IMG/VR virus record: IMGVR_UViG_3300022555_003212
Origin: an uncultured virus (IMG/VR IMGVR_UViG_3300022555_003212)
Lineage: Duplodnaviria; Heunggongvirae; Uroviricota; Caudoviricetes
DNA: 40,079 nt
Direction: 5' to 3' (one strand)
The position numbers and the translations under genes are program-made. Under the pieces are notes generated by a model. It made no database searches. It was not told the origin of the DNA and worked only from the letters and a program-made list of their open reading frames with translations. This document shows, piece by piece, positions 3,023 through 36,334 of this stretch (position 1 is its first letter; every line of letters begins with the position of its first letter).

Positions 3023-3437
3023 AGATCAAAAACTTCACCATGTTTTCTGGCTTTAGTGTCTTTAATAACTTTATTCACACTTGGTAAATCAAGTAAGCGT
3101 ATGCTAATAGGAGTATCTACATATATTTCAAATATTGTCTTACCACTTATAATTTTTCGTTTGTCGGAAAATTCAAAAACAACATATTGAATATTCTCTG
3201 ACCCGCCAAATTTTAAATTAACATGACTAACAGTACCTCGTCTATCACCTTGCCAAACGGTTGATATTTTTATATATTTTCCAATCAGCATCTCCTTTAG
3301 CATTTTTCTAAAAACATTTTATTGAGCTGTGATAACCGATGGAAATTTATATTATCAATGACACTAAGCATTATATCTTTCAGATTAAGCTTAACTGACG
3401 TTGATTTTGTTTCATATAGTTTAAAAGTAGTTATCAT
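3019..3437 (-). pseudogene. FDL-array family B gene split by a 1-nt frameshift
   Basis: ATG at 3437 gives MITTFKLYE...NKMFLEK then stops; the 3019-3303 frame (MLKEMLIGKY...VFDL) continues in the -1 frame across an A-run at ~3303-3307. Confidence 0.65.
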
Positions 3438-3772
3438 AAATCAAATCTTAGTTTTGCCAGTTCAGCATCACTTGCTTCCGTAGCTTTTTTAATGTCTTTA
3501 CCATGGTATAGTATCCGACCAAGTACAGAACTATCAAATCTTGATCTCATAGTATGTGGAATCTCCCAAATTTTTCCCATTTGCCCAACCCAGTTCCAGT
3601 CGAATGAAACCCTAAAAACTTTTTTAATATACATTATTCCAACTTTCTGTTCCCCCATACCAGTTTGAAATGCAACTGTTAAATAATCTCCAGCTTCAGG
3701 AAATATACCACTATCTTGGTAGCTTTTCTCATCATCTTCAATTGTTTCAAATAATTGGAATTTTGTTATCAT
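3434..3772 (-). CDS. FDL-array hypothetical protein
   Basis: MITKFQLFE...KLRFDL. Confidence 0.85.
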   Translation of the reverse strand: MITKFQLFETIEDDEKSYQDSGIFPEAGDYLTVAFQTGMGEQKVGIMYIKKVFRVSFDWNWVGQMGKIWEIPHTMRSRFDSSVLGRILYHGKDIKKATEASDAELAKLRFDL

Positions 3773-4224
3773 AGATCAAAACGATTTTGGACCTTTACTT
3801 GCATACCTTTTTTGGTATAATCAAACAGAATATCTTTTAATGATCTCATGTTTTTCTCCTGTGATGATGATGCAGCATCAACCCAGTTCTTTTTAAATGT
3901 TCCACCAGCCCTTGATTTTTCGTGCCCAAATGGTTTTATGACAGATGAAATATTTCCAGGATTAAAAATTGTTCCGACAAAATCTGAATATAATATGGCG
4001 TGTCTTTCACCCTTACCTAATCCTGATTTAACATGACGTTTATCTACCCTTAAATATAACCTTTCAGTTCCAACCAAGTATAAATATGCATCTACATAAT
4101 CAGCATCATCATCCCATGACCAATATGAATAATTAACAGCAATTAATTTTCCATCTGGCACCTCTGGGGCATCCGAAGTGCTTCCCCACACCTCAAAAAT
4201 TCTATATGGTATAATTTTTTTCAT
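3769..4224 (-). CDS. FDL-array hypothetical protein
   Basis: MKKIIPYRIFE...QNRFDL. Confidence 0.85.
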   Translation of the reverse strand: MKKIIPYRIFEVWGSTSDAPEVPDGKLIAVNYSYWSWDDDADYVDAYLYLVGTERLYLRVDKRHVKSGLGKGERHAILYSDFVGTIFNPGNISSVIKPFGHEKSRAGGTFKKNWVDAASSSQEKNMRSLKDILFDYTKKGMQVKVQNRFDL

Positions 4225-4228
4225 GTTG

Positions 4229-4237
4229 TATATATTA
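4229..4237 (-). promoter_or_regulatory. Putative late-type promoter TAATATATA
   Basis: Recurrent WWATATATA motif just upstream of an operon-starting ATG. Confidence 0.45.
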
Positions 4238-4239
4238 AT

Positions 4240-4695
4240 TTATAGATCAAATCTTTTTGTCTTGGCATCAATCCTTAATCTACTTAAAAAATCCAGCTTA
4301 CTATTATCATAAACTTTGATGTCATTTGACATATCAACAACGTTATCCTTGCTTACTGAATTTTCAAAATAAATCTTAATCCCACACTCCATAAAATCGG
4401 TTGATGATGAGTAAAATTTAATATCTTTTACAATACCATTTATTGGTGTGCTATTTGTAGGTCTTCCATCAATTGTTAAAGTATTAAAATAAACCATGTG
4501 ATCAATTAAAATAAATCTAAAAATACAATTAATAACATATAGTTTATTTTTTTCTAACCCATTCCCGACAATTTGTCGATGTAGTTCTTGGATTTCAGTA
4601 AGATTATTCAAAATAGTTGTTATAATATTTTTAACATCAAGTAAATAATATTCGCCAAAAGAATCTGAATTTTCAAAATGTTTCAAGTATCTCAT
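4240..4695 (-). CDS. FDL-array protein, family B
   Basis: MRYLKHFEN...INGIVKDIKF...IKVYD...TKRFDL. Confidence 0.85.
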   Translation of the reverse strand: MRYLKHFENSDSFGEYYLLDVKNIITTILNNLTEIQELHRQIVGNGLEKNKLYVINCIFRFILIDHMVYFNTLTIDGRPTNSTPINGIVKDIKFYSSSTDFMECGIKIYFENSVSKDNVVDMSNDIKVYDNSKLDFLSRLRIDAKTKRFDL

Positions 4696-5162
4696 AGATC
4701 AAATCTTTTTGCAATGTTATCCTTCTTTAATTTCTTTATCAAATCATCTATTGAATTATTATGGATTCTTATATCATGATCAGTGTTAACAGTATAAATA
4801 TGTCTGTTAACCATAAATTCTATTTTGGTTTTAAAACTATCCCCCAGCATAAATGATGATGGTGCTCCAACGAAAACCTTTGTTACAATACCTGATACTA
4901 ATGGGCAATTAATAGTAAAGTGCCCATCTTTATGCCATGAGTTAAAATCAACGTTATATCCAACTAATAGTTTATTTAGGAATGTAACAAATATATCATG
5001 TTCTGTATGCGTACTTCCACCATATGATGTTTTATATCCAACAGATTTTAATACATTATGCAAGTCATCATAATTTGTATTACAATACTTCCACAATAGT
5101 TTTATATTAAGGCTATAACTGCCGACACCATTCATATATTCATATGTTTTTAAATACCTCAT
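4692..5162 (-). CDS. FDL-array protein, family B
   Basis: MRYLKTYE...LLVGYNVDF...VSGIVTKV...AKRFDL. Confidence 0.85.
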   Translation of the reverse strand: MRYLKTYEYMNGVGSYSLNIKLLWKYCNTNYDDLHNVLKSVGYKTSYGGSTHTEHDIFVTFLNKLLVGYNVDFNSWHKDGHFTINCPLVSGIVTKVFVGAPSSFMLGDSFKTKIEFMVNRHIYTVNTDHDIRIHNNSIDDLIKKLKKDNIAKRFDL

Positions 5163-5665
5163 AAATCGAATCTTGAAAATTTAATATCTTTTTTTATTTG
5201 CTCAAGCACAATTTTTAATTTATCTATATATCCCCCAAGGGTAACAGAATCTTTTAAACTATCCCGAATTATTTCTTCAAATTTATCAACCCAGACTGCA
5301 TAACTATCTGAATTATTCATATCGTCATCACCCCAATCTTGACTTCCTAATGCTAATTTATATAATTTACTAATAATGAATGATAATGACATTATTTTTA
5401 ATATTCTGTCATTATCTGATAGTTTTAATGCTCTAACCTTTTCATTATTTTCATTTGGAGTATCCAATAAAAACGCAGCACCTGATGCTACACTACAATT
5501 TATAACTCTATCACTATGCAGTTTATGAATATGAAATACTAAACTTTCGTCAAATTTTCTAAGTATTTTAACTTTACCAAAATCGAATAGATATGATGTA
5601 TACGCAGATTTAGGTGACGAAATCCAAGATGAATCAGCTTCATTATATTTTACAATTTTTGTCAT
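5159..5665 (-). CDS. FDL-array protein, family C (paralog of 16872-17501)
   Basis: MTKIVKYNE...DSVTLGGYIDKLK...SRFDL. Confidence 0.85.
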   Translation of the reverse strand: MTKIVKYNEADSSWISSPKSAYTSYLFDFGKVKILRKFDESLVFHIHKLHSDRVINCSVASGAAFLLDTPNENNEKVRALKLSDNDRILKIMSLSFIISKLYKLALGSQDWGDDDMNNSDSYAVWVDKFEEIIRDSLKDSVTLGGYIDKLKIVLEQIKKDIKFSRFDL

Positions 5666-6081
5666 AGATCAAATCTTTTTTCCCTACCAATATTTATTTC
5701 TTCAATTTGATATTTAGGATACTTTTCTTTTATTTCATCAATAAGATTATCTATATTGTTATAATCACAATAAAAAACGATCATTTCCCGATCATTTGGT
5801 TCATCGTATTGCGTATGCGTAAATTTACTTGTTTTTAGAATCATTTCCAGCGCATGAAAATTTGACGGCTCATCATATAGTCGTATTTCTACATTTCCGC
5901 CAAATCTATAAAACATTATATCTGAATTGCCTCTGGTGATATTTAAATACCGCAATCCAGTTTTTTCTCCTTTTCTAACTGTAATAGACCCATCGCAAAA
6001 ATCCCGTATAGTATTTGTTAATTTAAGAAATACTATATTTCGTTGCTGTACATCTTTCCATGATTCGAAAATAGTTATCAT
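5662..6081 (-). CDS. FDL-array hypothetical protein
   Basis: MITIFES...EKRFDL. Confidence 0.85.
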   Translation of the reverse strand: MITIFESWKDVQQRNIVFLKLTNTIRDFCDGSITVRKGEKTGLRYLNITRGNSDIMFYRFGGNVEIRLYDEPSNFHALEMILKTSKFTHTQYDEPNDREMIVFYCDYNNIDNLIDEIKEKYPKYQIEEINIGREKRFDL

Positions 6082-7163
6082 TTGGTTGGAATTACGTTGT
6101 CTGAATCTTGTTTAGGAGGGAGACCAACTAAACCTCTCAAATTGTTTTCAAAGCCTTTTTTATCAAAATTTTCTTCTTTTTCAATTATTTTAAATCTTTT
6201 AGAATTCCACCAAACTTTCTCTGGGTCTTCTTCTAATTCATAAAAAGTTAACGTACCATTTTCCTCTAAATTTGTAACTGTATACTGATCACCTTCTTTA
6301 ATTTTCCAATCAGTCTCAGTCTTTATTCCCAAGTCATTAATACATTCAACTGTTTCACCAACTTCAGCAATTAGTTTATTTTTGGCAGCAAATCTATGCT
6401 TAAAGAAAAGTCCATGCTTGGCTATATCCTGTTCCATTTTAGTACGTGGACCTGAATCGTGTGTTTGAAAATAAATCCCTTCAATTTTCTGGAATGATCC
6501 ATTAAGTATATCAAGTCTTGGATCGTACATTTCATCACTCTTATCATCTTCTTCAAATGCTTTCATGAGTGCGTCATACCATTTATTCATAAAAGATTCA
6601 CATTTTCCAACCCACATAGCTTTTTGTTTCATTTTACCAGGTTTTTCTGGGTCTGGTATAGGTACATTTATTACTTCAACATCAAGTTCTTCTTTATGAT
6701 ATGTAAGAAGTAATTTAATAATAATAGTTGAATTGAATATATCGGATTTTATTTTACTTGATGTAGCCTTAATTATTTTATCTAATTCAATATCTGTTAA
6801 AGGTACCTCAGATAATAACCTTTCTTGAAAAGGTGATTTAAAATCAATAGATGCTAAATAATCACGCATCGGTTGAGCCTTATCTTCTTCTTGTGGCTTA
6901 TTTGTATCTGTTACCCAATCTACGATATCATCCATTGGAGCTTCTTCTTTGCTCATTTCTGAGAATTTTAGCATAGCTTCATCCCAAAGGTTACGCCATG
7001 GTGGGTGCTGAATATATGAGTGGCTATCTTTGATCTTTTGAAACGCAGCCGTTATTTTATCAAAATCTTTAAGTGCAAATATTTCATCGATCTTTGCTGA
7101 AAGCTCACGTGGGGTCATTCTTTTCCAAGGTTCTTCATCTTCAAAAAATTTAAGGTATTTCAT
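6078..7163 (-). CDS. N-tagged 361-aa protein with C-terminal SH3-like domain, no FDL tail
   Basis: MKYLKFFED start; C-terminal VECIND...ELEEDPEKVWWNSKRF is homologous to 7694-7963. Confidence 0.85.
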   Translation of the reverse strand: MKYLKFFEDEEPWKRMTPRELSAKIDEIFALKDFDKITAAFQKIKDSHSYIQHPPWRNLWDEAMLKFSEMSKEEAPMDDIVDWVTDTNKPQEEDKAQPMRDYLASIDFKSPFQERLLSEVPLTDIELDKIIKATSSKIKSDIFNSTIIIKLLLTYHKEELDVEVINVPIPDPEKPGKMKQKAMWVGKCESFMNKWYDALMKAFEEDDKSDEMYDPRLDILNGSFQKIEGIYFQTHDSGPRTKMEQDIAKHGLFFKHRFAAKNKLIAEVGETVECINDLGIKTETDWKIKEGDQYTVTNLEENGTLTFYELEEDPEKVWWNSKRFKIIEKEENFDKKGFENNLRGLVGLPPKQDSDNVIPTK

Positions 7164-7182: not shown

Positions 7183-7192
7183 TATATATTTA
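7183..7192 (-). promoter_or_regulatory. Putative late-type promoter TAAATATATA
   Basis: WWATATATA motif upstream of ATG 7163. Confidence 0.45.
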
Positions 7193-7194: not shown

Positions 7195-7230
7195 TTATAG
7201 ATCGAATCTTGATCCTTTAAGATACTTCAT
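7195..7230 (-). other. Tag-only mini-ORF MKYLKGSRFDL (11 aa)
   Basis: ATG AAG TAT CTT AAA GGA TCA AGA TTC GAT CTA TAA; ATG overlaps the preceding FDL stop. Confidence 0.75.
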
Positions 7231-7697
7231 AAATCAAATCGTGATCATTTTTTATTAACCAGAAAACCTTTCTGATTCATCTTATAAAATTTTGCAACAT
7301 CAAGCATGGATAAATACAATGTAACACTATTGTTTAATAGATAATTAATTCCAAGGCTTGATGCATAACGATATAAATCTTGTGCAAAAGTACGAGCATC
7401 ATCAGAAACGGGGTATATATTAAGTATAATCAAATCTTGATAATACATTTTATCTTTTTCTTTATATGTTAGTGTAATACTAAGTGCGGTTTTAGAATCA
7501 TCCACAAATTCAAGAAATGATGCACTCCAATCCATATGATTATCATTATCGAATCCGATATATGAAGATAACGTTGTATATCCATTCACAGATTCTACAA
7601 AGTTTGATATGAACTCACCAAGCTTTAGAAGAATATCTTCTTTTGAACTATTGAAAAATCCAATTGATTTATCTTCATATGTTTTCAAATATTTCAT
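7227..7697 (-). CDS. FDL-array protein with premature TGA five codons before the FDL end
   Basis: MKYLKTYED...VNKK*SRFDL*; in-frame TGA at 7245-7247 (track ORF 7245-7697). Confidence 0.75.
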
Positions 7698-7963
7698 AAG
7701 TCAAATTTTTTCATTGCTTCAATTTTATTCACTGTAAATCTTGAAGCTCTCCACCATGTTTTATCTGGGTCTTCTTCAAGTTTATAGTATATTGTCATAT
7801 CATCAAGAACATCAATAACACTATACTCATCACCAATAATAAGTTTCCAATGTGTACCAATTTTATCACCATCGTTAACACAAATGACTTTATCCCCAGC
7901 ATTAGCAAGTTTAGTATAATCAATATATTTTGATTTACCTTCGTATGTTTTTAGATATTTCAT
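7694..7963 (-). CDS. FDL-array SH3/KOW-like protein
   Basis: MKYLKTYEG...GDKVICVND...IGDEYSV...KKFDL. Confidence 0.85.
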   Translation of the reverse strand: MKYLKTYEGKSKYIDYTKLANAGDKVICVNDGDKIGTHWKLIIGDEYSVIDVLDDMTIYYKLEEDPDKTWWRASRFTVNKIEAMKKFDL

Positions 7964-8061
7964 AAGTCGAATCTATCTTCCAATTTTTGTTTTTTTATTT
8001 CTTCAAGTGTTTTTTTAGATTTTGTAAATCTCCACGCTCCATATTTAAAGGCTTTAAGCAC
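7960..8061 (-). pseudogene. C-terminal remnant of an FDL gene (33 codons)
   Basis: VLKAFKYGAWRFTKSKKTLEEIKKQKLEDRFDL*; no N-tag and no in-frame ATG. Confidence 0.55.
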
Positions 8062-8210: not shown

Positions 8211-8876
8211 CTACAGGTCAAATCGCTTATATACTTTATCCTTGGAGATACCATATTCAGATTCCGTGAAAGAATGTATTATAAAAACATTTTTTTGAGA
8301 ATACAGTTCTTTAATTATATTAGAAATGATATTTTTGTTTCTGTCTAATATTTGATCATATAGAGTAAATATGTCATTTAAGTTACTTGGGGTAACCATT
8401 TGATTATTCACAAAATCGTGAATTTTAGTTCCGCCAAAATATTCTTCATAAATTAGCATAGTACTCATATTTGATTTTAGATATAATAACACCGCCTTTA
8501 TCTTCCAATCACTTGCCGTATTATTTGATAATAATGAAGTTGCCCCAGTTGTCTGAATATAAACACTATCAATATATTTTGTTATTTCAAAAATCTTGTC
8601 ATATGATGTCTTATCGATATCATCTGGAATATTTAAAATATATGAACGTTTATTTTTCATACGTAGGTAACCAAAATAAAATTTTGATATTTCAGATCGG
8701 CATATTGCAGCATCAAACCCATCAAGCCCTTTAGTATCTTCTACTCTCCAATCACAATGATATGATGGTAGTTTATATTTTACTGGATAGGACCTGATTT
8801 TTAAAAACATATAATCCCAATCTTTGTAGGTAATATCAACAGATTCAAACAATCTAAAATTTTTCATATATATCAT
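8211..8876 (-). CDS. FDL-array hypothetical protein
   Basis: M(IYM)KNFRLFES...YKRFDL, TAG stop. Confidence 0.85.
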   Translation of the reverse strand: MIYMKNFRLFESVDITYKDWDYMFLKIRSYPVKYKLPSYHCDWRVEDTKGLDGFDAAICRSEISKFYFGYLRMKNKRSYILNIPDDIDKTSYDKIFEITKYIDSVYIQTTGATSLLSNNTASDWKIKAVLLYLKSNMSTMLIYEEYFGGTKIHDFVNNQMVTPSNLNDIFTLYDQILDRNKNIISNIIKELYSQKNVFIIHSFTESEYGISKDKVYKRFDL

Positions 8877-9340
8877 AAGTCAAACTGGGTACCTTTTCTT
8901 TTTGCTTTCATGTTTCTTAATATATCCTTCAATTCTTGTGGAACATCATATATAAATAATTGATCTGTTTTTCTTATAACATAAAGAATTTTATTCCCCA
9001 TTATTAAATCACTTTCTGGTCTGGCACCAACATCATGCAATGCATAAAAAACAATTTCATGTATTACATCATCTACTGTATTTTGGCATTCGGCAAATCT
9101 TTTGGTATCAGATTTTGGTTGATTCGGATCATATCTTTCTTGAACTTTTGTACAACGCCATTTAACACGATTACCAATTAATAATTCCTCTATAAATTCT
9201 ATACATTCCATCGGAGCATCTAACTGTGGCTTTGGAAATTCTGTTGAACGCAATCGTTCAAAAAACCGCCACGCATCATATATCTCATTAAGAGTTACTG
9301 TTAGGCAATTACTATTATGATCTTCAAAAGTCTTTATCAT
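8873..9340 (-). CDS. FDL-array protein, family B
   Basis: MIKTFED...VTLNEIY...LLIGNRVKW...GTQFDL. Confidence 0.85.
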   Translation of the reverse strand: MIKTFEDHNSNCLTVTLNEIYDAWRFFERLRSTEFPKPQLDAPMECIEFIEELLIGNRVKWRCTKVQERYDPNQPKSDTKRFAECQNTVDDVIHEIVFYALHDVGARPESDLIMGNKILYVIRKTDQLFIYDVPQELKDILRNMKAKRKGTQFDL

Positions 9341-9951
9341 AAGTCAAATCTTTTTCCTTTTTTATTTATTCGTAATTGCTTTAGTATTTCTGGGTATTCT
9401 TCCGCTATTTTTCGTTTCAAAAAATGTGATGATACTGACCAAAAATCACCATCATTATCTTTGATCGGATCAATGTAATACGGATTTGCACCAGCTTTTA
9501 ATAACATCCTAATAATTTCCATGCACTCTTCAACAACTCCCTCACGGTTTTCGGATACAGCAAACGAATTCTCAGCGACTGATCCCAATATACTCGAACC
9601 AGATTTAGTTATGTTATTTGGGTTTGCTCCTTTAGATAATAAAAGTTTTACGATTTTTATATTTCTATTACGGGCAGCCCAAAATAACGGTGAGAGGTTT
9701 CTATTGGTACATTTATTAACATCCGCTCCATTCTCAACCAAAAATTCAATCATAGAATCTGGATGATTGCGGCAAGCCTCTACTAAGGTTGGTGATTGTG
9801 TTCCAAGATCAATTGCAATATAATCGATATAATTTGGATTTTTATCTATCAATTTTTGCAATTCATCAGTATCATTTAAAGCAAATGCCTGTCTCCAAAT
9901 ATTTTCATCTTCACCAAGCCCCTCATTAATAAATTGCAAATATTTTTTCAT
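9337..9951 (-). CDS. Ankyrin-repeat protein, dual-tagged
   Basis: MKKYLQFINE; FLVENGADVN, SPLFWAA, LLLSKGANPN; GKRFDL. Confidence 0.9.
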   Translation of the reverse strand: MKKYLQFINEGLGEDENIWRQAFALNDTDELQKLIDKNPNYIDYIAIDLGTQSPTLVEACRNHPDSMIEFLVENGADVNKCTNRNLSPLFWAARNRNIKIVKLLLSKGANPNNITKSGSSILGSVAENSFAVSENREGVVEECMEIIRMLLKAGANPYYIDPIKDNDGDFWSVSSHFLKRKIAEEYPEILKQLRINKKGKRFDL

Positions 9952-10655
9952 AAATCAAATTGACTTTCTATAAAATATTTTCTTATATCGTTAGATATTT
10001 TTTTGGATTCTTCTTCGCTAATATTTTTAGTGTTTTTAGACTCTACAAAAATTTTGTATGAAGGTTTTTTAACAAACTGTAATGTGTGAGTATTATTAAG
10101 ACCACTTTTACCAAATTCTTCTGAGAATACCCCATCGGTAAATTGGTAATGACCTTCTAATATTTTTGGAAACGCTATAAAATACATTGAATGTGCACCT
10201 TTCCATCCAGTAAAATCTAACGATTTTTTTAATTCTGTTACATAGTATTCAATACTATCTTGTTTTGCAAGCTCAACCATTTTGTTATATTTCTTATCAC
10301 GGATCAAATTCCAATATTTATAAAAATATCCGCCAGCTTTTTCATTTACTGGTTGTATATGAATTTCATCGAAAGATATGAACCCAAAATCTAAAAAATT
10401 TTTTAGTATGTTATCCGCTTCAGTAGGCTTAAATGCTGGGGAATATGTTGGCGCAGATGGTCTGTCTATAACGCCAGAATTAATTAACGTTTGAACTGCC
10501 GATTCATAAAAATCGTGAACCTTTGGGAAATCTTCAAAATATGAATATAATTTAACGAATAATTCACACACCTGAATATGCGGGTCAATTAATGGGACTG
10601 GCTCATAATTTTCCAAATCATTAAAACTTTTAAAAACTTCATATTTTTTTATCAT
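9948..10655 (-). CDS. FDL-array hypothetical protein
   Basis: MIKKYEVF...ESQFDL. Confidence 0.85.
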   Translation of the reverse strand: MIKKYEVFKSFNDLENYEPVPLIDPHIQVCELFVKLYSYFEDFPKVHDFYESAVQTLINSGVIDRPSAPTYSPAFKPTEADNILKNFLDFGFISFDEIHIQPVNEKAGGYFYKYWNLIRDKKYNKMVELAKQDSIEYYVTELKKSLDFTGWKGAHSMYFIAFPKILEGHYQFTDGVFSEEFGKSGLNNTHTLQFVKKPSYKIFVESKNTKNISEEESKKISNDIRKYFIESQFDL

Positions 10656-27472: not shown

Positions 27473-27492
27473 AACATTACTTATTTTTCTAC

Positions 27493-27504: not shown

Positions 27505-27525
27505 TTTAAACTTAAAATCTTGTCA

Positions 27526-28592: not shown

Positions 28593-28596
28593 ACCA

Positions 28597-28893: not shown

Positions 28894-28992
28894 TTATTTA
28901 TATTTTTTATAATATATATAAAAAATATAAAGTCATCTCATTCTGATAACGGATAAAAAGTAGAATTTAAATTTTTATATATAACTATAAAA

Positions 28993-29901
28993 ATGATAAT
29001 CTATAAAATAACAAATTTGATAAATAACAAATGCTATGTTGGTCAAGACAGTAAAAATGATCCTAATTATTATGGGTCTGGTAAATTAATACATCAAGCC
29101 ATAAAAAAATATGGTAAAAATAATTTTAAAAAAGAAATATTAGAATTTTGCGATAAAAAAGATTTAAATATAAGAGAGAAGTATTGGATACGAGAAATAA
29201 ATTCATTAGTACCAAACGGATATAATATGCATGAAGGTGGCACTGGTGGCGATACTTATACATTTCAAACTAATAAAAGGAAGAAAGAAATCACTAAAAA
29301 AAGACAAGAAATGATGATCTTTAAATATGGTGGAAATCAAAATAAAGGAATTAAATTGTCTGATGAAAGAAAAAAGGAAATTGGAGATAGTAATAGAGGT
29401 AAGAAACATCCAAATAGGAAGAAGATTAAACTTACGCAAGAACATAAAAATAAAATAAGTAATTCATTAATTGGAAAAATCGTAAGCGAAGAAACAAGGA
29501 AAAAAATGAGTGATAATATGATTGGCACAAAGTTAACAGAAACCGCCAAAAATAAAATATCTAAAGCGTTAAGGGGTAATAAAAATGCCAGTGGATATAA
29601 ACATACAGACGCTGCAAAAAGTAAGATGATCAAATTTAAAGACGGTCATATTCCATGGAATAAAGGATTAACATCAAAAAATAGTGATGGAGTTAAAAGA
29701 ATTTCTATCAGTCGAAAAAATAATCTAACGATCTATAAATTGCAAACCCCATTAAACAAAATATTTGAATTCAAAGGTAAAAATATGCTACAGGAATATA
29801 TACGTATTATCAATGATAATTTTGAAAATAAACGTAATAGCAAAATAAATATTAGGGTGCTAATAAAAAATAAAGAATCTAAAGGTTATAAACTATTATA
29901 A
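28993..29901 (+). mobile_element. Free-standing GIY-YIG homing endonuclease with NUMOD3-like repeats (Seg-like)
   Basis: IIYKITNLINNKCYVGQ, YYGSG, E..WI, GYN; repeated S/T-xE-x-K-x-KIS motifs and PWNKG. Confidence 0.9.
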
Positions 29902-29925
29902 TTTTTTTCTTCTATAACTTTTTAT

Positions 29926-29933
29926 TACTTTTG
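29926..29933 (+). promoter_or_regulatory. Bacteroidota-type -7 element (TACTTTTG)
   Basis: TAnnTTTG 19 nt upstream of ATG 29953. Confidence 0.5.
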
Positions 29934-29952
29934 CTTTGAAAAAATCAAAACT

Positions 29953-30102
29953 ATGAAAAAACTCAGAACATATATTAAGCAATTGCTTTGTGACCACACA
30001 TTTGAAGCGGATACCCAAATAAAGGTTATTAAGTGCTCGAAATGTGAAAAAAAGTATTGGTACATAATTAAGGATATTTTTCCAAATTCACTTCAAAAAT
30101 AA
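29953..30102 (+). CDS. 49-aa Zn-ribbon-like protein (not in ORF track)
   Basis: MKKLRTYIKQLLCDHTF...KCSKCEKK; CxH + CxxC. Confidence 0.65.
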   Translation: MKKLRTYIKQLLCDHTFEADTQIKVIKCSKCEKKYWYIIKDIFPNSLQK

Positions 30103-30109
30103 TTACTGC

Positions 30110-30718
30110 ATGATAAAGGTTGGAGTTACGGGTGGTATAGGATCGGGTAAATCTTATGTCTGCGAACTATTTCATACACTGCATGATATAGAAATTTACA
30201 ATACAGATCGAAAGGTGCAAGATGATATTATGCACCGCCCACACATACATCAGCAAATCATAGATAATTATGGTGAAGATTCTTATGTGGATGGTAGCCT
30301 TAATAAAGAAAAGTTTAGAAAACTTTTATTTTACGATGAATCTGCCAGAAAAACAATGGATCAAATTATTTCAGTTGAACTGAGAAATGATATTTATTTG
30401 TGGTGTAAAACTCAGGCAACACCATATGTTATAATCGAATGTGCCATTTTATTTGAACATAACATGGAAGCCTTATTTGATAAAATAATCACCGTATTTT
30501 GTCCAATGGAGATAAGGCTCAAAAGATTGAGTGGTAGGCGGAAAGGACTTAATCCAGAAAAAGAAGCAGCATTTAGCGATACTCATAAAAAAATAATAGA
30601 CATTCAAATGCCAGACGAAGAAAAAATAAAAAGATCGGATTATGTAATAAAGAGCGAAGATGATTCAGTTATTGATGAAATAAATAAACTTCATCAAAAA
30701 TTAATTAAACTTGCTTAA
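30110..30718 (+). CDS. coaE: Dephospho-CoA kinase
   Basis: VGVTGGIGSGKS P-loop, ECAILFE, R..RL..R, QM..EEK...SDYVI. Confidence 0.9.
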   Translation: MIKVGVTGGIGSGKSYVCELFHTLHDIEIYNTDRKVQDDIMHRPHIHQQIIDNYGEDSYVDGSLNKEKFRKLLFYDESARKTMDQIISVELRNDIYLWCKTQATPYVIIECAILFEHNMEALFDKIITVFCPMEIRLKRLSGRRKGLNPEKEAAFSDTHKKIIDIQMPDEEKIKRSDYVIKSEDDSVIDEINKLHQKLIKLA

Positions 30719-30738
30719 TTATTTTAACTACAAATTTT

Positions 30739-31332
30739 ATGACACTAACTGAGTTGGAAAACATATTGACAAGTGTAAAGTTTGCTTCAGAATTTAAGGG
30801 CACAGCAAAAGATTTATATGATAGGTGGAATGAACCACATCGCCATTTTCACACACTCAACAACCATTTCGAAAGAATAATTTCATTGATTGAAAAACAC
30901 AAGTCGGAAATGACTATGTATAAATATGATTTATTGCGTATAATTGCAATTTATCATGACATTGTTTACCTACCAAGGATAGATAAGTTGAATGTTATTG
31001 ACAGTGTTGAAAAATTCAAGAAAGATTTTCCCGACCTTCAAGAAGATTTAAGTGATGTCATAATCAAAGGAATAATGAGTACGATTGATCATGATGTCAA
31101 TCATCCAGATAGTATATGCCGTTATTTTAATAATTTTGATATGTACGGCTTATTTCATGATAATGCTGCTGATTTGATTCGTGATAATGTTCTTCTTAGA
31201 AAAGAATATGAGAATGCTATGGACATGAATGTATTCACCGCAAACAATATAAAATTTCTATCTGGCTATATCAAACACAACCCAGAAATTAAGAAATTAA
31301 TTGAGCATATAAAAAAAATCCCAAATAAATGA
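30739..31332 (+). CDS. HD-superfamily metal-dependent phosphohydrolase
   Basis: WNEPHRHFHTLNNH, AIYHDIVY, D..G, LRKEY. Confidence 0.85.
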   Translation: MTLTELENILTSVKFASEFKGTAKDLYDRWNEPHRHFHTLNNHFERIISLIEKHKSEMTMYKYDLLRIIAIYHDIVYLPRIDKLNVIDSVEKFKKDFPDLQEDLSDVIIKGIMSTIDHDVNHPDSICRYFNNFDMYGLFHDNAADLIRDNVLLRKEYENAMDMNVFTANNIKFLSGYIKHNPEIKKLIEHIKKIPNK

Positions 31333-31958
31333 TTACCGAGAAGATTAATTCAATATTTGATATCAATGAATGTTTATTTTTTAAAGAGCGTGGTATGGCT
31401 GGGCATGAATATATTACCAGCAATAATTATTATGAATGGTACTATTCTCTGACAAAAGAAATTAAACCAGAAAGTATATTGGAAATCGGTGTACGTTACG
31501 GGTATAGCCTTTGCTGTATGGCTCTTGCTTGCGATAAAAATGTTTATTTGGAAGGTTGGGATAGCGTTGACACTTTACCTTTAAGTGAACGTGATATATT
31601 AGATGTTGCCAAAGAAAATTTAAAAAATCTTGGATACAACAATTTCAATATAATAACCCAAGATTCACACAGTATCCAAAAAATGCCACGAAAATTTGAT
31701 CTTGTTCATATTGACGGGGATCATAGTTATCAGGGTAAAATAATGGATTTGGACCTTGTTAAGAATTCATGTAAATATTTGATAATTGATGATTATCACC
31801 ATCTACCTCAAGTAAGAATGGCAGTTGATTTTTTCATGGGGCAAAATCAAAGCATTATTAAAACAGCTTATGTCATCAACAGTTTTAGAGGAACTATGTT
31901 TGTCGAGTTTCTAACAGATGAATTGCCTGATCTACAACTTGTAGAGTCAGTCCAGTAA
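31329..31958 (+). CDS. Class I SAM-dependent methyltransferase (Methyltransf_24-like)
   Basis: ILEIGVRYGYS, FDLVHIDGDHSY, LIIDDY. Confidence 0.9.
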   Translation: MITEKINSIFDINECLFFKERGMAGHEYITSNNYYEWYYSLTKEIKPESILEIGVRYGYSLCCMALACDKNVYLEGWDSVDTLPLSERDILDVAKENLKNLGYNNFNIITQDSHSIQKMPRKFDLVHIDGDHSYQGKIMDLDLVKNSCKYLIIDDYHHLPQVRMAVDFFMGQNQSIIKTAYVINSFRGTMFVEFLTDELPDLQLVESVQ

Positions 31959-32481
31959 TATCATTTAAGTTAAAATCTGTTTCTCTGGCTTCATTCCAAA
32001 TTTGATTTATTTTGATACAAACTTTGCTGTCGGGTTTATTTTTGATAACCTTATCGGCATCATCAATCATAATATCAACATGATCCCATTTTTGTCTTGC
32101 GCTTCTGGAAAATACAATATCATCTCTTAGCACACCAAATCTATCAAGCCAATTCTTAGTTTCTTCAATAGATTTTTCAGTAGGCTGAAATGTAACTACA
32201 ATCATGTCACCGCCAAGGCTTTTAATATAGTTATATGCTTTGTTAACTGTTTCAATAGCATCTTGATATGGTTGTGATATCTGACATATCTCATGCTTGT
32301 GATCATCAAACCACTCATCTGGATCACAACCATTATAATCCATTCTTCTATACCAATACCAATCATCGACAGGTTCTGGAGTTTTATCAGGAAAATATTT
32401 TTTGTAAAGGTTGTTAAATCCTTCACCAAAATTATTCATTGTACCATCTACATCTACGCCAAATTTTATTTTTTTTATCAT
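31894..32481 (-). CDS. HAD-family 5'(3')-deoxyribonucleotidase (NT5C-like); start revised to 32481
   Basis: GVDVDGT, VVT, T..WL, K, IMIDD, WN motifs. Confidence 0.85.
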   Translation of the reverse strand: MIKKIKFGVDVDGTMNNFGEGFNNLYKKYFPDKTPEPVDDWYWYRRMDYNGCDPDEWFDDHKHEICQISQPYQDAIETVNKAYNYIKSLGGDMIVVTFQPTEKSIEETKNWLDRFGVLRDDIVFSRSARQKWDHVDIMIDDADKVIKNKPDSKVCIKINQIWNEARETDFNLNDITGLTLQVVDQAIHLLETRQT

Positions 32482-32532
32482 AAACTTTATTATATTTGTT
32501 AATATATAGCAGAAAAACGAAAGGAGGTTGTC

Positions 32533-32751
32533 ATGGAAAATAAAAATTTGAAAGTCTGTTATTACTGCATTCATGGAAGACCAAGGAAGAATAATCTTTG
32601 TTCAATCAATAAGTATTTAGTTAAAGATGTCCATACTCATACCTGTGATCAATATTTGCCAGATAAATGGCTAATTGATTTCGAATCTACCCGTATTGAG
32701 TCTAAACAAGACGATGAGGGTAGTAATCTCGTGCTGCGTATGGCAGCTTAA
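32533..32751 (+). CDS. Small Cys-rich hypothetical protein
   Basis: CYYC...C...HTC; preceded by AAAGGAGG. Confidence 0.65.
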   Translation: MENKNLKVCYYCIHGRPRKNNLCSINKYLVKDVHTHTCDQYLPDKWLIDFESTRIESKQDDEGSNLVLRMAA

Positions 32752-32797
32752 AAACAATTTTTTTTATTCAACAATTTTTTTATTCAACATTTATTTC

Positions 32798-32816
32798 TAC
32801 CTTTGCTACAAAGATA
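32798..32816. promoter_or_regulatory. Facing pair of Bacteroidota -7 elements (TACCTTTG on +, TATCTTTG on -)
   Basis: Two TAnnTTTG matches in inverted orientation just upstream of ATG 32831. Confidence 0.45.
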
Positions 32817-32830
32817 TAAAAAATTATCTT

Positions 32831-33901
32831 ATGAAAAAAATACTTGTAGGAATTTCAGGTGGAATAGCAGCATACAAAACATTGGACATCGTTTCCATCC
32901 TAACCAAAATGGGTTATGAAGTCCATGTAATAATGACAGATACTGCTAAAAACTTTTGCTCAAGTGCCGTTGCAAACGTCCTTAGTGGCGGAAATCTTAA
33001 AACCGAAACCCCAGATCAAACAAGCCACATAGTTGAAGCAAAATGGTGTGATGCTTTTATTCTCGTTCCAGCAACTGCCAATACGATTGCAAAAATAGCG
33101 AGTGGAATTGCAGACAATTTTCTATTATCCACAATTTTGGTACTTGCTGACAAAGCAAGAATGATTTGCCCAGCCATGAATACCAACATGTGGGAAAACC
33201 CAATCACACAAGAGAATATAGATAAGCTTAAAAAACATCACTGGCATATAATATCGCCAGTATCTGGATTATTGGCTTGTAATGATACTGGAATGGGTAA
33301 ACTTCCAAAACCAAAAGAAATAGTCGAAAAAATAGTGGATATTATTGATCCATTACCAAAATGGAATTTTCCATTAAAAATGCAATATGTTGGCACCACT
33401 ATCGATTCAAATTCGTTTATGGATATTGATACTTCATATCAAGTGGAAATATTACTATCACCGCACGTTGGCGGATTTGGTGTTAGGCGTAGGCATGATG
33501 TTCATAGTGGGGTTGACTTATACGCTCCAGTTGGAACTCCAGTGTATCCTGTTGAGGCTGGTAAAATTGTAAGCATTGAGCCTTTCACAGGTAAACTGGC
33601 AGATTGTGACTGGTGGGAAGATACATGGGGTGTGTATGTAGAAGGCGCATCTGGTATCGTAGTCTATGGTGAAATGTTACCAAATCCAATATTTAACGTT
33701 GGGGATTTATTGCAGCCAACCGATGTTATTGGGCACGTATTAAATGTTTTGAAAAAAGATAAAGGTCGCCCACGTAGTATGCTTCATATAGAACTGCATA
33801 AGCATGGGGTTATTAACAATCCGCATTGGGTTAAAGGCGGGCCAAAGCCTGATGGGTTATTAGACCCAACAAAATATTTGATTAAATCTAATAAGGAATG
33901 A
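32831..33901 (+). CDS. coaC: Phosphopantothenoylcysteine decarboxylase (CoaC flavoprotein) fused to M23 peptidase; start revised to 32831
   Basis: ILVGISGGIAAYK, PATANTIAKIASGIADN, PAMNTNMW, LACNDTGMGKL; then HSGVDLYAPVGTPVY and MLHIEL (M23 HxxxD / xLH). Confidence 0.9.
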   Translation: MKKILVGISGGIAAYKTLDIVSILTKMGYEVHVIMTDTAKNFCSSAVANVLSGGNLKTETPDQTSHIVEAKWCDAFILVPATANTIAKIASGIADNFLLSTILVLADKARMICPAMNTNMWENPITQENIDKLKKHHWHIISPVSGLLACNDTGMGKLPKPKEIVEKIVDIIDPLPKWNFPLKMQYVGTTIDSNSFMDIDTSYQVEILLSPHVGGFGVRRRHDVHSGVDLYAPVGTPVYPVEAGKIVSIEPFTGKLADCDWWEDTWGVYVEGASGIVVYGEMLPNPIFNVGDLLQPTDVIGHVLNVLKKDKGRPRSMLHIELHKHGVINNPHWVKGGPKPDGLLDPTKYLIKSNKE

Positions 33902-34221
33902 AAAATTCTTCCGAACATAAAGCTTGGAAATTGTGGGCATATTTGCCTATCACTTCATTAGAAGAAAATCCTACAGAAGATGAAATGATGTATCTTGGTA
34001 TTTTTGATTCGAAAGAAAAAAAAGTTGAGGCTATGGAGAAGTTTTTAGCTTTTCTTGAAACCGAAGACTTTTCTGAAGATAGTGTTAATATTTTCAGATC
34101 AAAAGAAATTGTAATGAATAAATATGAGCATTATGTTCCAACCAAAGAGCAGATTGAAAAATATAATAGGAATAAAAAAGCTTGGCAAATAAAAGATAAA
34201 ACACAAAGATTTGACCTATGA
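33898..34221 (+). CDS. FDL-tailed protein without N-tag, inside the CoA operon
   Basis: YLGIFDSKEK...TQRFDL, ATGA overlaps on both sides. Confidence 0.8.
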   Translation: MKNSSEHKAWKLWAYLPITSLEENPTEDEMMYLGIFDSKEKKVEAMEKFLAFLETEDFSEDSVNIFRSKEIVMNKYEHYVPTKEQIEKYNRNKKAWQIKDKTQRFDL

Positions 34222-34745
34222 ACCTACCAGAAAATTTTGAGCTTTTAAACTCAGCAAAATATTTTGAGTCCTACATTAAAGAAGATTGGGGGGTGATAAA
34301 CCTAACACCACACTTGAATTATCATAATTTTTTCCGAAATGGTGAACTTACTAAGCGGGTTGCGGATTTTTTAGGATACCATTATCAAAAGGACGATGGC
34401 GTAGTAATAAATAAATTTGCATCTCAAAAATCCCTTGTGAATGCTCAATTTGTATCCACAATGATCATGACTGATGGTGAAGTTAAAATGCTTGACGAAT
34501 TATTTGGAAGAGGAAAAAGAACAAATCGTCTGGGTGAAGGTAGAGCAACGGTTTACTTCTTTAAAATAAATGGTAAGCTCGTAATGCTATTTCATGATAG
34601 TCGTGGCGTTGCAACTGAAATTGAGTCAAATTTAACTAAAGAAGAATTTCTGGATATTGAAACTGATTTAATAAAATACCTATACAGTGGATTTTCTCAG
34701 GAATGGAAAGATGAAATAAACTTAATAATGGGAAGGACAAAATAA
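34218..34745 (+). CDS. Hypothetical protein
   Basis: 175-aa operon ORF. Confidence 0.7.
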   Translation: MNLPENFELLNSAKYFESYIKEDWGVINLTPHLNYHNFFRNGELTKRVADFLGYHYQKDDGVVINKFASQKSLVNAQFVSTMIMTDGEVKMLDELFGRGKRTNRLGEGRATVYFFKINGKLVMLFHDSRGVATEIESNLTKEEFLDIETDLIKYLYSGFSQEWKDEINLIMGRTK

Positions 34746-34921
34746 TGGCACCATTGGCATTCTGTCCATTCTGTGGCTGGAATTCTATAAGCATACATCC
34801 GTCAATGGGAATATATGACGAGGAATGGTTTACTTGCTCAACATGCTTAATGCAAGATTTAACAAAAAAGCATAAATTAAAAAATGAAAGAAAATTGAAA
34901 CTTAAAAAATTAAAGATATGA
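34745..34921 (+). CDS. 58-aa Zn-ribbon protein with RxxKLxxL tag (not in ORF track)
   Basis: MAPLAFCPFCG...CSTC...ERKLKLKKLKI*; overlaps both neighbours. Confidence 0.75.
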   Translation: MAPLAFCPFCGWNSISIHPSMGIYDEEWFTCSTCLMQDLTKKHKLKNERKLKLKKLKI

Positions 34922-35250
34922 CACAATTAATTTTTTTGGGTGAAGAATTAGACCCTACCAAAGAGCATGAATTATTGATTGATCCAAATGATCATCCATT
35001 CGGAGTCAACGCTATACTTCAACTTAAGGAACCACTATTTCCAACCAGCGTTCCTAAGGGTGGTGAAGAGGATATTATGAATATTAACAATCTTACAGAA
35101 GTTCATAGTTTATATCCAACCCATTGTGGTAAAACACCATGCCGAATTGCATTTGAAAGCGATATACATGGCACTGGATTCACTTACGATATGAATGATA
35201 TCAAAGTAGTACACATTGTTCACGCATCATTTAAAGCCGAAGAGATATGA
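34918..35250 (+). CDS. Hypothetical protein
   Basis: 110-aa operon ORF. Confidence 0.7.
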   Translation: MTQLIFLGEELDPTKEHELLIDPNDHPFGVNAILQLKEPLFPTSVPKGGEEDIMNINNLTEVHSLYPTHCGKTPCRIAFESDIHGTGFTYDMNDIKVVHIVHASFKAEEI

Positions 35251-35969
35251 AAATTCTGATAACATCTGGTGGAACACGAGAAATGATTGATGGTGTTCGT
35301 TGCATTACAAATATATCAACTGGAAAACTTGCCGTTAAAATTCTGGAAGAATTAGTTGGTCAAGAAAAAATAAATAATATTCGTTCAGACAAAAGACTGG
35401 AACGAATGGAATTTATTTTTATTCACACCAAAGGATCGGCAATGCCGCCAAGCACAATTATCGAATCATATGATATCGATATTAAATACATCGAGGTTAC
35501 AGACACTCAAAGTGCAATGGATGCTATGGAAGAATTGGTACCAACTGTTGACGTTGTTATTCATCCGATGGCAGTTTCGGACTTCGCATTTGCACCAATA
35601 AAAACTAAGCTGAAAAGCAATGATCCTGAAGCTTTTATTGAAAGTGTGAAGGAACGTATTTATCGTACACCAAAAATTTTATCCCACATCAAAGAATGGA
35701 ATCCGAATTGTTTTTTAATTTCATTTAAATTTGAAGATGGAGTAGATCACGATGAGCTGATCAGGATAGCATTTGATTCTCTATTGAAGAATAAAAGTGA
35801 CATTGTCATAGCAAATGAAAAACAAGAAATGAATAATCTTGGTATACACCGAGCATATTTTGTCACCCAAGGCTCTGTCACAGCCCCAGACGTTCTTATG
35901 GTTGACGGTAAGCCAAATATTGCTAATAAAATTGTTGAGATTGTTCTAAGTAGACTTCCGCAGTTTTAA
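35247..35969 (+). CDS. coaB: Phosphopantothenate-cysteine ligase (stand-alone CoaB)
   Basis: ILITSGGTREMIDGVRCITNISTGKL, MAVSDF, TPKIL, ISFKFE, VIAN. Confidence 0.9.
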   Translation: MKILITSGGTREMIDGVRCITNISTGKLAVKILEELVGQEKINNIRSDKRLERMEFIFIHTKGSAMPPSTIIESYDIDIKYIEVTDTQSAMDAMEELVPTVDVVIHPMAVSDFAFAPIKTKLKSNDPEAFIESVKERIYRTPKILSHIKEWNPNCFLISFKFEDGVDHDELIRIAFDSLLKNKSDIVIANEKQEMNNLGIHRAYFVTQGSVTAPDVLMVDGKPNIANKIVEIVLSRLPQF

Positions 35970-36334
35970 ACGCTGGGGTACGGATGTGTTGGGTTAATCA
36001 ATTCTGAAATTTCTTCTACAGTACCAATAAAACCTTTACCCATATCAGGGTTTTCCATATTATCAAATGGAAAATCTTTTATCCATAGTCTATTACCAGC
36101 AGCCCAAATTTCATAAGGCTTTCCTTCAATTAGAACATCAGCGTGAGGCCCTTCAAGTTCATCATAATACGTATCTCTGATGAGTCGAATCTTCCCACCG
36201 CACAACGCAACCAATTCTTTTAAAATTTCCTGAAACTCAGCAACTGAAGTTGTTTCTTTTTCTGTTCTAAACTCTGATCCACTCCACCCATTGAGGTTGC
36301 CTTCATTAAATGAATTCCAATTTTTTATTTTCAT
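35966..36334 (-). CDS. N-tagged hypothetical protein, no FDL; start revised to 36334
   Basis: MKIKNWNSFNE start. Confidence 0.75.
   Translation of the reverse strand: MKIKNWNSFNEGNLNGWSGSEFRTEKETTSVAEFQEILKELVALCGGKIRLIRDTYYDELEGPHADVLIEGKPYEIWAAGNRLWIKDFPFDNMENPDMGKGFIGTVEEISELINPTHPYPSV

Follow-up and report, generated by a model that had tools for sequence, protein, structure and literature searches.

Why should dozens of small viral genes, mostly unrelated to one another, begin and end with nearly the same few residues? The question is raised by a stretch of 40,079 nucleotides from an uncultured member of the Caudoviricetes (IMG/VR record IMGVR_UViG_3300022555_003212), referred to here, at its full length, as the window. 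The earlier note on this DNA had drawn attention to N-terminal peptides that resemble the capsid-targeting sequence (CTS) of bacteriophage T4 internal proteins, and had proposed that the proteins carrying them are packaged into the phage head, cleaved after the Glu that ends the peptide, and injected with the DNA. Our analysis revealed that most of the genes bearing this N-terminal tag (N-tag) also encode a common C-terminal peptide, typically [KR][RQ]FDL (C-tag), which had been overlooked. In the account that we favor, the N-tag would be a capsid-targeting signal, the tagged proteins cargo of the prohead, and the C-tag a second signal; given the likeness to T4, the scaffold and maturation motifs of the clade, the unrelated and variable protein bodies and the exposure of the tags in structural models, we put its prospects at about even.

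The window has a G+C content of 30% and, between about 3.0 and 28.6 kb, is crowded with short genes on the minus strand. It is part of a 175,979-base metagenome contig, on which it lies in reverse orientation, as indicated by a scan of metagenome contigs for the gene-junction pattern described below, which yielded 51 loci, several of them covering this contig. Counts for the contig refer to about 110 kb of its length and to open reading frames (ORFs) of at least 60 amino acids, whereas pooled counts refer to 142 distinct C-tagged ORFs from the window and its sister loci; eight smaller or sister contigs add C-tagged ORFs to this set, some of them common with the parent contig.

The gene starts quoted in the earlier note are all present, namely MKKYLQFINE (twice), MKKYIEFITE, MKNYSDFILE, MIKYTEFVFE, MKNYRQFNE, MKINKFNE and MKYLKTYE, the last of which opens both 7245-7697 and 7694-7963 and has the variants MRYLKTYE and MIYLKTYE elsewhere. 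The tally of about 45 tagged proteins is correct as well, being made up of 36 C-tagged ORFs of at least 60 amino acids, 3 C-tagged mini-ORFs and 5-6 genes that carry the N-tag only. Defined strictly as M[KRI]x(0-3)[YFLI]xx[FY]([LIV]x)?E, the N-tag is found at the start of 22 of the 76 window ORFs of at least 60 amino acids (in 2 of these 22, through an internal Met within 25 residues), against a background of 0 of 238 internal Met residues and 14 of 9,086 internal positions. A looser pattern captures 29 of the 76 ORFs, yet it is less specific, with matches at 19 of the 238 internal Met residues and two obvious false matches. The strict pattern is absent from all 293 ORFs of Tenacibaculum phage PTm1 (32% G+C; Bacteroidetes host), and thus, the N-tag is not a general feature of AT-rich gene starts.

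Three types of N-tag can be discerned: MKYLKx[YF]E; MITxFx[LI][FY]E, frequent in other parts of the parent contig; and the T4-like M-K-x-Y-x-x-F-[IV]-x-E, which occurs mainly on ankyrin-repeat proteins. The T4 record shows that IPII and IPIII begin with MKTYQEFIAE, and IPI with MKTFKEFTSTTTPVSTITE. The full tag, of the M-K-x-[YF]-x-x-F-[IL]-x-E type, is present in 9337-9951, 11604-12089, 14543-15175, 19911-20408 and 27526-28017, and MKKYLQFINE, MKKYIEFITE and MKNYSDFILE match the T4 peptide MKTYQEFIAE at six or seven of ten positions. Thus, the proposed likeness to the T4 CTS holds for a subset of the tags, which match it at M, K, Y, F, I and E, but the majority are shorter (MKYLKxYE, MITxFKLFE), retaining the Met, a basic residue or Ile, the hydrophobic-x-x-aromatic spacing and the Glu, and lacking the two residues that precede the Glu. 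In most tags, the Glu is followed by N, S, D, K or G. Judging by these sequence features, the N-tag is plausibly a relative of the T4 CTS.

At the opposite end, 39 window ORFs terminate in FDL-stop, mostly within [KR][RQ]FDL: the 36 longer ORFs and the 3 mini-ORFs mentioned above. Together with two out-of-frame remnants, the window holds 41 FDL-stop junctions, in 35 of which the stop is a TGA that overlaps the ATG of the next gene (..TTATGA..). Across the parent contig, the C-tag is carried by 113 of 240 distinct ORFs. The two tags co-occur, the loose N-tag being present in 24 of the 36 C-tagged window ORFs and in 5 of the 40 others (Fisher p = 1.3e-6). Each also occurs separately: 6078-7163, 7245-7697, 19911-20408, 27526-28017 and 35966-36334 have an N-tag and no C-tag, and 3019-3303, 15720-16067, 21310-21789 and 33898-34221 have a C-tag and no N-tag.

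Is FDL maintained as a peptide or as a string of nucleotides? Among the 142 C-tagged ORFs, the Phe is encoded by TTT and TTC in 102 and 40 cases (background, 76 and 24%) and the Asp by GAT and GAC in, likewise, 102 and 40 (background, 85 and 15%); 41 of the 142 keep FDL in front of a TAA or TAG stop, with no overlapping start; and the tripeptide, found 142 times at the chain end, occurs internally 19 times, against 18.7 expected from composition. FDL is therefore selected as a peptide and needs a free C-terminus. The Leu codon is TTA or CTA in 126 of the 142 ORFs and the Arg at position -4 is AGA in 83 of 100 (background, 49%), so that the overlap and the A-rich upstream region leave some mark. 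The tag follows a basic helical stretch, the mean net charge of the last 12 residues being +1.4. Beyond this lineage, no enrichment of the FDL-ATGA junction is seen in LR756501.1 (5 occurrences vs 2 for the control), in LR756502.1, LR745206.1, LR756504.1, LR756500.1 and PTm1 (1, 0, 0, 0 and 0, respectively) or in five large IMG/VR relatives (0-2 each), and the C-tag is thus confined to the lineage of the window. The C-tag is a protein-level, strictly C-terminal, lineage-specific signal; searches of the literature outside subscription journals found no description of a [KR][RQ]FDL C-tag.

The proteins between these ends are small (median, 139 amino acids) and diverse. The 142 C-tagged proteins fall into 91 BLAST clusters, 77 of them singletons and the largest comprising 23, 10 (the ankyrin proteins), 9, 6 and 5 members; therefore, the tagged bodies are mostly unrelated. 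A Pfam scan of 140 C-tagged proteins (36 from the window and 104 from outside it) detected ankyrin repeats in 8 (7 in the window and 1 outside), a ScpA match in 1 protein from outside, encoded on a probably chimeric contig, and a weak, sub-threshold match to gp45-slide_C in 1 window protein; for the other 130, no family was found. None of the 142 tagged proteins has a homologue in LR756501.1 at 1e-5, in contrast to 41 of 207 untagged ORFs (p = 1e-10), which identifies the tagged genes as the fast-changing fraction. The possibility that the conserved ends are signal peptides or membrane anchors was considered and rejected, given that a hydrophobic segment is present in only 6 of the 142 proteins.

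Structural modeling of two members with AlphaFold is consistent with linear signals at both ends. The product of 3434-3772 (112 amino acids, with 19 paralogues) was modeled with a mean predicted local distance difference test (pLDDT) score of 64, residues 1-16 being unstructured (pLDDT <50), residues 94-109 forming a helix (84-89) and the last three residues a coil. The ankyrin protein 9337-9951 (with nine paralogues) reached a pLDDT of 86.9; its residues 1-10 are the sole N-terminal stretch below 50, and a terminal helix (187-201) gives way to coil at FDL. Across both models, the N-tag scores 47-49, and an alignment (A1) displays a gap-rich linker of variable length between the N-tag and the domain. 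Given the low-confidence ends in both predictions, the two tags would appear to be exposed appendages, as expected of linear signals. The two folded bodies differ, one being a helical ankyrin protein and the other beta-rich.

What kind of virus carries this system? A megablast search with 11 kb of window sequence found no match in 50,697 phage records, an exact 50-nucleotide probe from the beginning of the window was absent from viral_contigs, and the affiliation comes from protein searches. The closest records belong to uncultured phages with lengths of 735, 642, 635 and 636 kb; the window's ADP-ribosylglycohydrolase shares 73% identity with that of LR756501.1, and for the large terminase of L001, a contig with C-tagged genes, the identity is 51%. 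The available excerpts of PMC7162821 place genomes of 634, 636, 642 and 735 kb in one clade with predicted Bacteroidetes hosts. Our relatives probably correspond to that clade, in which case the host phylum is likely to be Bacteroidetes, and the best explanation of the protein similarities is that the window is a piece of a huge uncultured phage belonging with these 634-735 kb genomes. An origin from a eukaryotic virus, brought to mind by the ankyrin repeats, was rejected in favor of a phage, given the overlapping genes, relatives of the T4 type and endonucleases of phage kind.

The earlier note had suggested looking for a gp21/gp23-type head module, and such a module is present in the relatives LR756501.1, LR756502.1, LR745206.1, LR756504.1, PTm1 (a cultured phage with a gp23-type capsid protein) and the IMG/VR contig L118; none was found in the window or in the approximately 110 kb of the parent contig. 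In 5 of 5 relatives tested, the capsid protein scores above the Pfam cut-off for Gp23. The gene order in LR756501.1 is portal, gp21-like protease fused to repeats, and capsid protein, the protease domain being followed by about a dozen scaffold-type 14-residue repeats (..Y[SA]EYIAE[NH][LV]D..). In L118, the portal matches Portal_T4 with 208.8 bits, the capsid protein matches Gp23 with 88 bits, and the protease matches Peptidase_S77 with 29.1 bits (cut-off 27) and phrog_207 at 1.8e-33. The protease-scaffold fusion has 50 distinct orthologues; among the matches listed, 45 of 45 contain 8-16 [YF][LIV][AGST]E units, and most begin with ..GLKxLNE or a close variant. When its profile was compared with PDB sequences, the sole match was a designed coiled coil, through the repeats.

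The capsid protein of the clade contains ..WMSEYAE[MF]H[SQ][LI]NE near residue 40 (for example, ..EYAEMHSLNE, in the N-terminal region) and the stretch ..WMSEYAEMHSLNE, and the predicted protease sites in both the capsid protein and the protease read [LI]NE. Thus, window tags such as KYLQFINE and KYIEFITE resemble a single scaffold repeat that ends in [LI]-x-E, like the predicted maturation sites. In T4, the cleavage rule of gp21 is (L/I)-x-E. When the L118 protease domain (residues 1-200) was modeled in complex with the N-terminal 60 residues of the ankyrin protein, the score was 0.00, which weighs neither way on binding.

N-tags are also found in LR756501.1, where 56 of 971 ORFs start with ..[YF]xx[FY][LIV]xE, mostly ..KYxxFINE, vs 23 of 4,052 internal Met residues; for the strict pattern, the corresponding numbers are 36 ORFs vs 8 internal Met residues. 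Here, the tags occur without the C-tag and on dispersed, non-overlapping genes. Among the tagged proteins scanned, 62 of 72 have no Pfam family, and the families that were recognized include a methyltransferase, PPK2, GNAT and DeoC aldolase, as well as a 1,233-residue protein with deaminase, poly(A)-polymerase-like and HD domains. Given the zero count in PTm1, the expansion of the N-tag belongs to the huge-phage clade. As a separate observation, LR756501.1 has its own recurrent motif, DPYGEE[DN]W, with 105 copies in 90 of its 971 ORFs (e.g., L004:1429-1965). Many copies lie about 10 residues from the C-terminus, others immediately follow the N-tag or are placed between the domains of long proteins, and a second gp21-like protease paralogue has a copy at its end; at the DNA level, there are 109 matches in LR756501.1 and none in four other huge phages or in the lineage of the window.

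How might such a system work? In the account that we favor, nearly half of the ORFs of the contig would encode small, soluble, fast-evolving accessory proteins with short exposed peptides at both ends. The N-tag would bring each protein into the core of the assembling prohead, where a gp21-like protease would cleave it off after the Glu, at any rate for the two-thirds of tags in which the third residue ahead of the Glu is hydrophobic, and the cargo would then leave the head together with the DNA. The [KR][RQ]FDL peptide would be a second, lineage-specific signal, and our guess is that it makes a second contact in the same loading pathway; that the cargo counters host defence is likewise a guess. 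In its fullest form, this account holds that more than 100 unrelated small proteins are sorted by a T4-derived N-terminal propeptide and a previously undescribed C-terminal [KR][RQ]FDL-COOH signal, and that a sister lineage uses DPYGEE[DN]W, a proposition that we advance tentatively and with more doubt than confidence.

The organization of the genes bears on how the tagged proteins would be produced. Up to nine tagged genes follow one another with ATGA overlaps, and the stop-start overlap (TGA/ATGA) probably couples translation along such runs. Deleted genes would leave in-frame, tag-only mini-ORFs; such mini-ORFs remain in frame at 7195-7230 and 21227-21313, and two more (22 and 12 amino acids) are on sister loci, which fits a translational coupling that must survive gene loss. 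A WATATATA element may serve as promoter. It is exemplified by 25011-25018 (minus strand), with further sites at 4229-4236, 7183-7190, 12502-12509 and 19701-19708; 18 of its 35 matches in the window fall into the 9.5% of non-coding sequence, and it lies no more than 60 nucleotides upstream of 65 of 163 genes that are preceded by a gap vs 4 of 160 without one. In front of many tagged runs, the element is at -12/-13 from the first ATG, which would leave almost no leader, and in L118 the portal, protease and capsid genes are preceded by it at distances of -27 to -56.

The closest precedent is T4 itself. The available excerpts of PMC3012670 and PMC5694885 describe the CTS on IPI, IPII, IPIII and Alt and its removal by the gp21 prohead protease, and those of PMC3012670 add that the internal proteins are highly diverse except for the conserved CTS. 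Likewise, the short N-terminal peptide described here sits on otherwise unrelated, fast-evolving proteins, and the portal, protease and capsid proteins of the relatives are of the T4 type. Unlike T4, with its handful of such genes, the phage described here has about 45 tagged genes within 40 kb and 113 with the C-tag within about 110 kb, the tags are mostly 8-9 residues long with the aromatic residue adjoining the Glu, a C-tag is added, and the genes form ATGA-coupled operons; the present system is, moreover, known from sequence alone. In the giant phages phiKZ, 201phi2-1 and SPN3US, as far as the excerpts of PMC5694885 go, many inner-head proteins are cut by a T4-related prohead protease at x-x-E, and prohead targeting is the presumed role of their propeptides. 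These differ from the window in that the propeptides often exceed 100 residues, the motif is (S/A/G)-x-E, no C-terminal tag is described in those excerpts, and about 8 of some 50 head proteins are processed, compared with a hundred small tagged proteins here (PMC5694885). A search of the literature outside subscription journals for texts joining "capsid targeting sequence" with huge, jumbo or mega-phages found none among the best 20 of 720 matches, and the available parts of PMC7824862 contain nothing on a CTS in huge phages. The C-tag can also be compared with the cargo-loading peptides of encapsulins. In those systems, a short C-terminal peptide loads unrelated cargo into a shell of an HK97-fold protein, the fold class of gp23. 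Both kinds of peptide are C-terminal, but the C-tag bears no likeness to the encapsulin consensus and is paired with an N-tag.

Several observations weigh against packaging and injection. Most of the tags are 8-9 residues long, with the aromatic residue directly before the Glu, unlike the T4 type, and only 66 of 101 have L, I, V or M three positions before the Glu. The tagged proteins are not basic (median pI of 6.3 vs 6.7 for untagged ORFs), and N-tagged PPK2 and DeoC aldolase of LR756501.1 are not obvious injected effectors. The T4 internal proteins, as given in the T4 record, have no C-terminal tag, which may indicate a different or additional sorting step. A tblastn search of all metagenome loci included in the analysis with portal, protease, capsid protein and large terminase recovered only the terminase and baseplate genes of L018/L001, and since no head gene is present in the window or the approximately 110 kb of the contig, the head module is ascribed to this phage through kinship only; L118 itself is tied to it by similarity and by a dataset number shared with L001. 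WATATATA also occurs upstream of homing-endonuclease genes, its spacing differs between the tagged runs and the head genes (-12 vs -27 to -56), and a common timing is not implied. Finally, cargo amounting to nearly half of the ORFs of the contig would be, to our knowledge, far beyond that of any known phage.

The strongest alternative, which we nevertheless consider unlikely, is that the tags are docking motifs for a hub other than the capsid, that is, a degradation machinery, a sliding clamp or a phage-made compartment, in which case the likeness to the T4 tag would be partial convergence. In the degradation version, the proteins would be destroyed at a set time, a ClpX-like unfoldase or a tail-specific protease recognizing the basic stretch together with the hydrophobic free C-terminus. 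C-terminal degradation signals and clamp-binding peptides look roughly like [KR][RQ]FDL, and a docking motif of this kind is in keeping with the requirement for a free chain end, the basic helical stretch before the C-tag and the lack of a C-tag in T4 internal proteins. Two Peptidase_C39-like genes among the tagged runs and a papain-like gene on a sister contig could also be enlisted, and DPYGEE[DN]W of LR756501.1 shows that lineage-specific short motifs are habitual in these phages. However, no PDZ, clamp or ClpX receptor domain was detected among 109 untagged proteins scanned, the N-tag stands without the C-tag throughout LR756501.1, and a hub would leave unexplained the match of the N-tag to the clade's scaffold repeat and to the sites in the capsid protein and the protease.

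Could the conserved ends be devices of translation rather than of sorting? The N-terminal pattern would then tune initiation in a host that does not rely on Shine-Dalgarno sequences, and FDL-TGA/ATG would be a module for termination and reinitiation that holds ribosomes on very long operons. Such a role is compatible with the TGA stop of 101 of the 142 C-tagged genes, with the overlap of all 35 TGA junctions of the window with the next ATG as ATGA, with the preference for TTA or CTA as Leu codon, as the overlap needs, and for AGA at -4 in an A-rich upstream context, with the persistence of tag-only mini-ORFs in frame, and with the likely host phylum, Bacteroidetes, according to the excerpts of PMC7162821. 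Nevertheless, the 41 genes that keep FDL without an overlapping start, the background-like drift of the third positions of the Phe and Asp codons, and the reading of the Leu codons by different tRNAs all speak against it. The N-tag, moreover, occurs on dispersed, non-overlapping genes of LR756501.1 and is absent from PTm1, whose host belongs to the same phylum, and an optimum of initiation would leave the fixed aromatic residues and the Glu at set distances unexplained. We thus regard translation devices as decidedly improbable.

It is more doubtful still that all tagged genes descend from one ancestor by tandem duplication, the bodies having diverged beyond recognition and the ends being left over. 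Tandem arrays of genes of similar size, with clear paralogue groups of 23, 10, 9, 6 and 5 members, are what duplication would produce, but ankyrin-repeat and beta-rich bodies are different folds, the same N-tag is found in LR756501.1 on enzymes of unrelated known families, and 8 plus 5 terminal residues kept across 91 clusters would still require a function at the ends.

The junction could, finally, be a boundary of DNA cassettes. A relevant case is L031, a 5.5-kb contig that, from base 823 on, is 100% identical to window positions 21299-16642 and, before the join (in the 1-900 region), contains a ScpA-type frame, judged by eye to be richer in G+C, which continues without a frame change into the mini-ORF 21227-21313 at its C-tag end; either an emptied cassette has captured a gene here or, equally likely in view of the abrupt change in sequence, the contig is an assembly chimera. 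Integron-like or T4 promoter-stem-loop cassettes have at their boundaries a conserved DNA repeat of sufficient length to recombine. Although the tag-only mini-ORFs and a frameshifted remnant resemble emptied cassettes, the L031 join brings a bacterial-type frame to a C-tag end, and the gene content of the arrays is lineage-specific, recombination at DNA-level boundaries with the peptide motifs as by-product is highly improbable, since 64-nucleotide junction windows are only 49% identical (longest shared exact stretch: median 8, 95th percentile 16, maximum 32 nucleotides), synonymous sites vary freely, there are no intergenic repeats because the genes overlap, and L031 may just as well be a chimera.

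If the tags are loading signals, as in the capsid-targeting account, sequence alone would suffice to list the cargo of a huge uncultured phage. At about fifty times that of T4, it would exceed the packaged and injected proteome of every other virus of bacteria, and the tags would represent a new class of signal for cargo loading in phages. An arsenal delivered before phage gene expression could then be one explanation for part of the coding capacity of 600-700 kb phages that is so far unaccounted for, and the short tags would offer a practical means of loading capsids with foreign proteins. Should the capsid reading fail, the C-tag would still matter: 142 unrelated proteins keep it at their free end, so that it must have a receptor, whose discovery would bring to light a pathway of sorting, timing or degradation that is unknown in phages.

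The individual genes, all on the minus strand unless stated otherwise, are arranged as follows. At one end of the crowded region (3019-4224), three genes end with VFDL or RFDL (3019-3303, 3434-3772 and 3769-4224), 3434-3772 starting with MITKFQLFE. The next five (4240-7163) overlap by ATGA and start with MRYLKHFE, MRYLKTYE, MTKIVKYNE, MITIFE and MKYLKFFE; four end with RFDL, and 6078-7163 has only the N-tag. The mini-ORF at 7195-7230 consists of tags alone (11 amino acids, MKYLKGSRFDL). It is followed by 7245-7697 (MKYLKTYE), which has an in-frame TGA five codons ahead of a residual SRFDL-stop, and, within 7694-8061, by 7694-7963 (MKYLKTYE...KFDL) and 7960-8061 (33 amino acids, ...RFDL). Every one of the eight overlapping genes in 8211-12496 ends with FDL, and three of them encode ankyrin proteins with T4-like tags, 9337-9951 (MKKYLQFINE), 11143-11607 (MKNYRQFNE) and 11604-12089 (MKKYIEFITE). 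The minus-strand arrays are then interrupted for 600 nucleotides (12497-13100), with reversed G+C skew; the plus-strand ORFs in this break, 12566-12790 and 12845-13099, have no family, tRNA or Rfam match, and searches of the window for tRNAs and Rfam families found none.

Beyond the break, 13101-13874 starts with MKNFNDFLKM and has no C-tag. Within 13929-15216, there are two ankyrin genes with both tags, one starting with MKYLKKYE and the other, 14543-15175, with MKKYLQFINE, and the frameshifted N-tag/C-tag remnant at about 15176-15216 follows this pair. Nine overlapping genes occupy 15205-19723, all ending with RFDL or QFDL; the true start of the last one is probably MKKYDQYVND at 19696. The segment 19911-21210 includes 19911-20408, an ankyrin gene that starts with MIKYTEFVFE and has no C-tag, 20405-20749 (MKINKFNE...RFDL) and 20746-21210 (MRKIKNYE...RFDL), and the mini-ORF at 21227-21313 encodes 28 amino acids made up of N-tag, short linker and C-tag (MKYIKLFE...KRFDL). 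Three genes in 21310-22723 end with QFDL or RFDL, the last of them probably starting with MRYLKLYE (22672), and two in 24108-25006 have both tags (MKYLKEY...KFDL, with a TAA stop, and MKYIKAFE...RFDL). The tagged run at 27526-28592 comprises 27526-28017 (MKNYSDFILE, no C-tag) and 28014-28592 (MNNYFEFVILE, ankyrin, ...QFDL). Apart from these arrays, 33898-34221 is the sole plus-strand gene that ends with RFDL, and it lacks an N-tag, and 35966-36334 starts with MKIKNWNSFNE if read from an internal ATG and has no C-tag.

Tagged genes are interspersed with, or flanked by, genes of other kinds. The Peptidase_C39-like cysteine proteases among the tagged runs of the parent contig are L060:8384-8989 (minus strand, E = 5.6e-15) and L060:14347-14862 (minus strand, E = 1.1e-6), and the papain-family gene on a sister contig is L051:5567-6355; a double-glycine leader for the C39-like peptidases was rejected, the tags being devoid of GG. 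Runs of small untagged genes are found on the minus strand at 58-3022 and 22937-24073, many with K-x-G-D-x-V or a similar motif near the start (KYKVGDVLRC, KEGDTVLCC, IKVGDFVVY), and 58-417, 398-640 and 619-876 are mutually related according to BLAST. The genes of these runs have no family match, save a weak one of 58-417 to phrog_14592 (virion structural protein, E 8e-4).

Between a tagged run and a metabolic block lies a divergent pair of homing-endonuclease type, 28597-28893 (minus strand, T5orf172/MUG113) and 28993-29901 (plus strand, GIY-YIG with three NUMOD3). The block of auxiliary genes, at 25173-40079, includes an ADP-ribosylglycohydrolase (26208-26993), a dephospho-CoA kinase (30110-30718), a fusion of a flavoprotein (CoaC-like) domain and a Peptidase_M23-like stretch (32675-33901), a DFP/CoaB-like protein (35247-35969), a cytidylyltransferase-like protein whose N-terminus is MazG-like (39168-40079), an HD phosphohydrolase and an NT5C-like nucleotidase; these similarities suggest a phage-encoded coenzyme A pathway. 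A sister contig with C-tagged genes encodes Cas6, Cas3 (with an HD domain) and a GmrSD_N-like protein (L051:15345-18756; L041:4776-6158 and 16689-17954), and the same L051/L041 loci also carry class I (Met-type) and class II (Asp/Asn/Lys-type) aminoacyl-tRNA synthetases.

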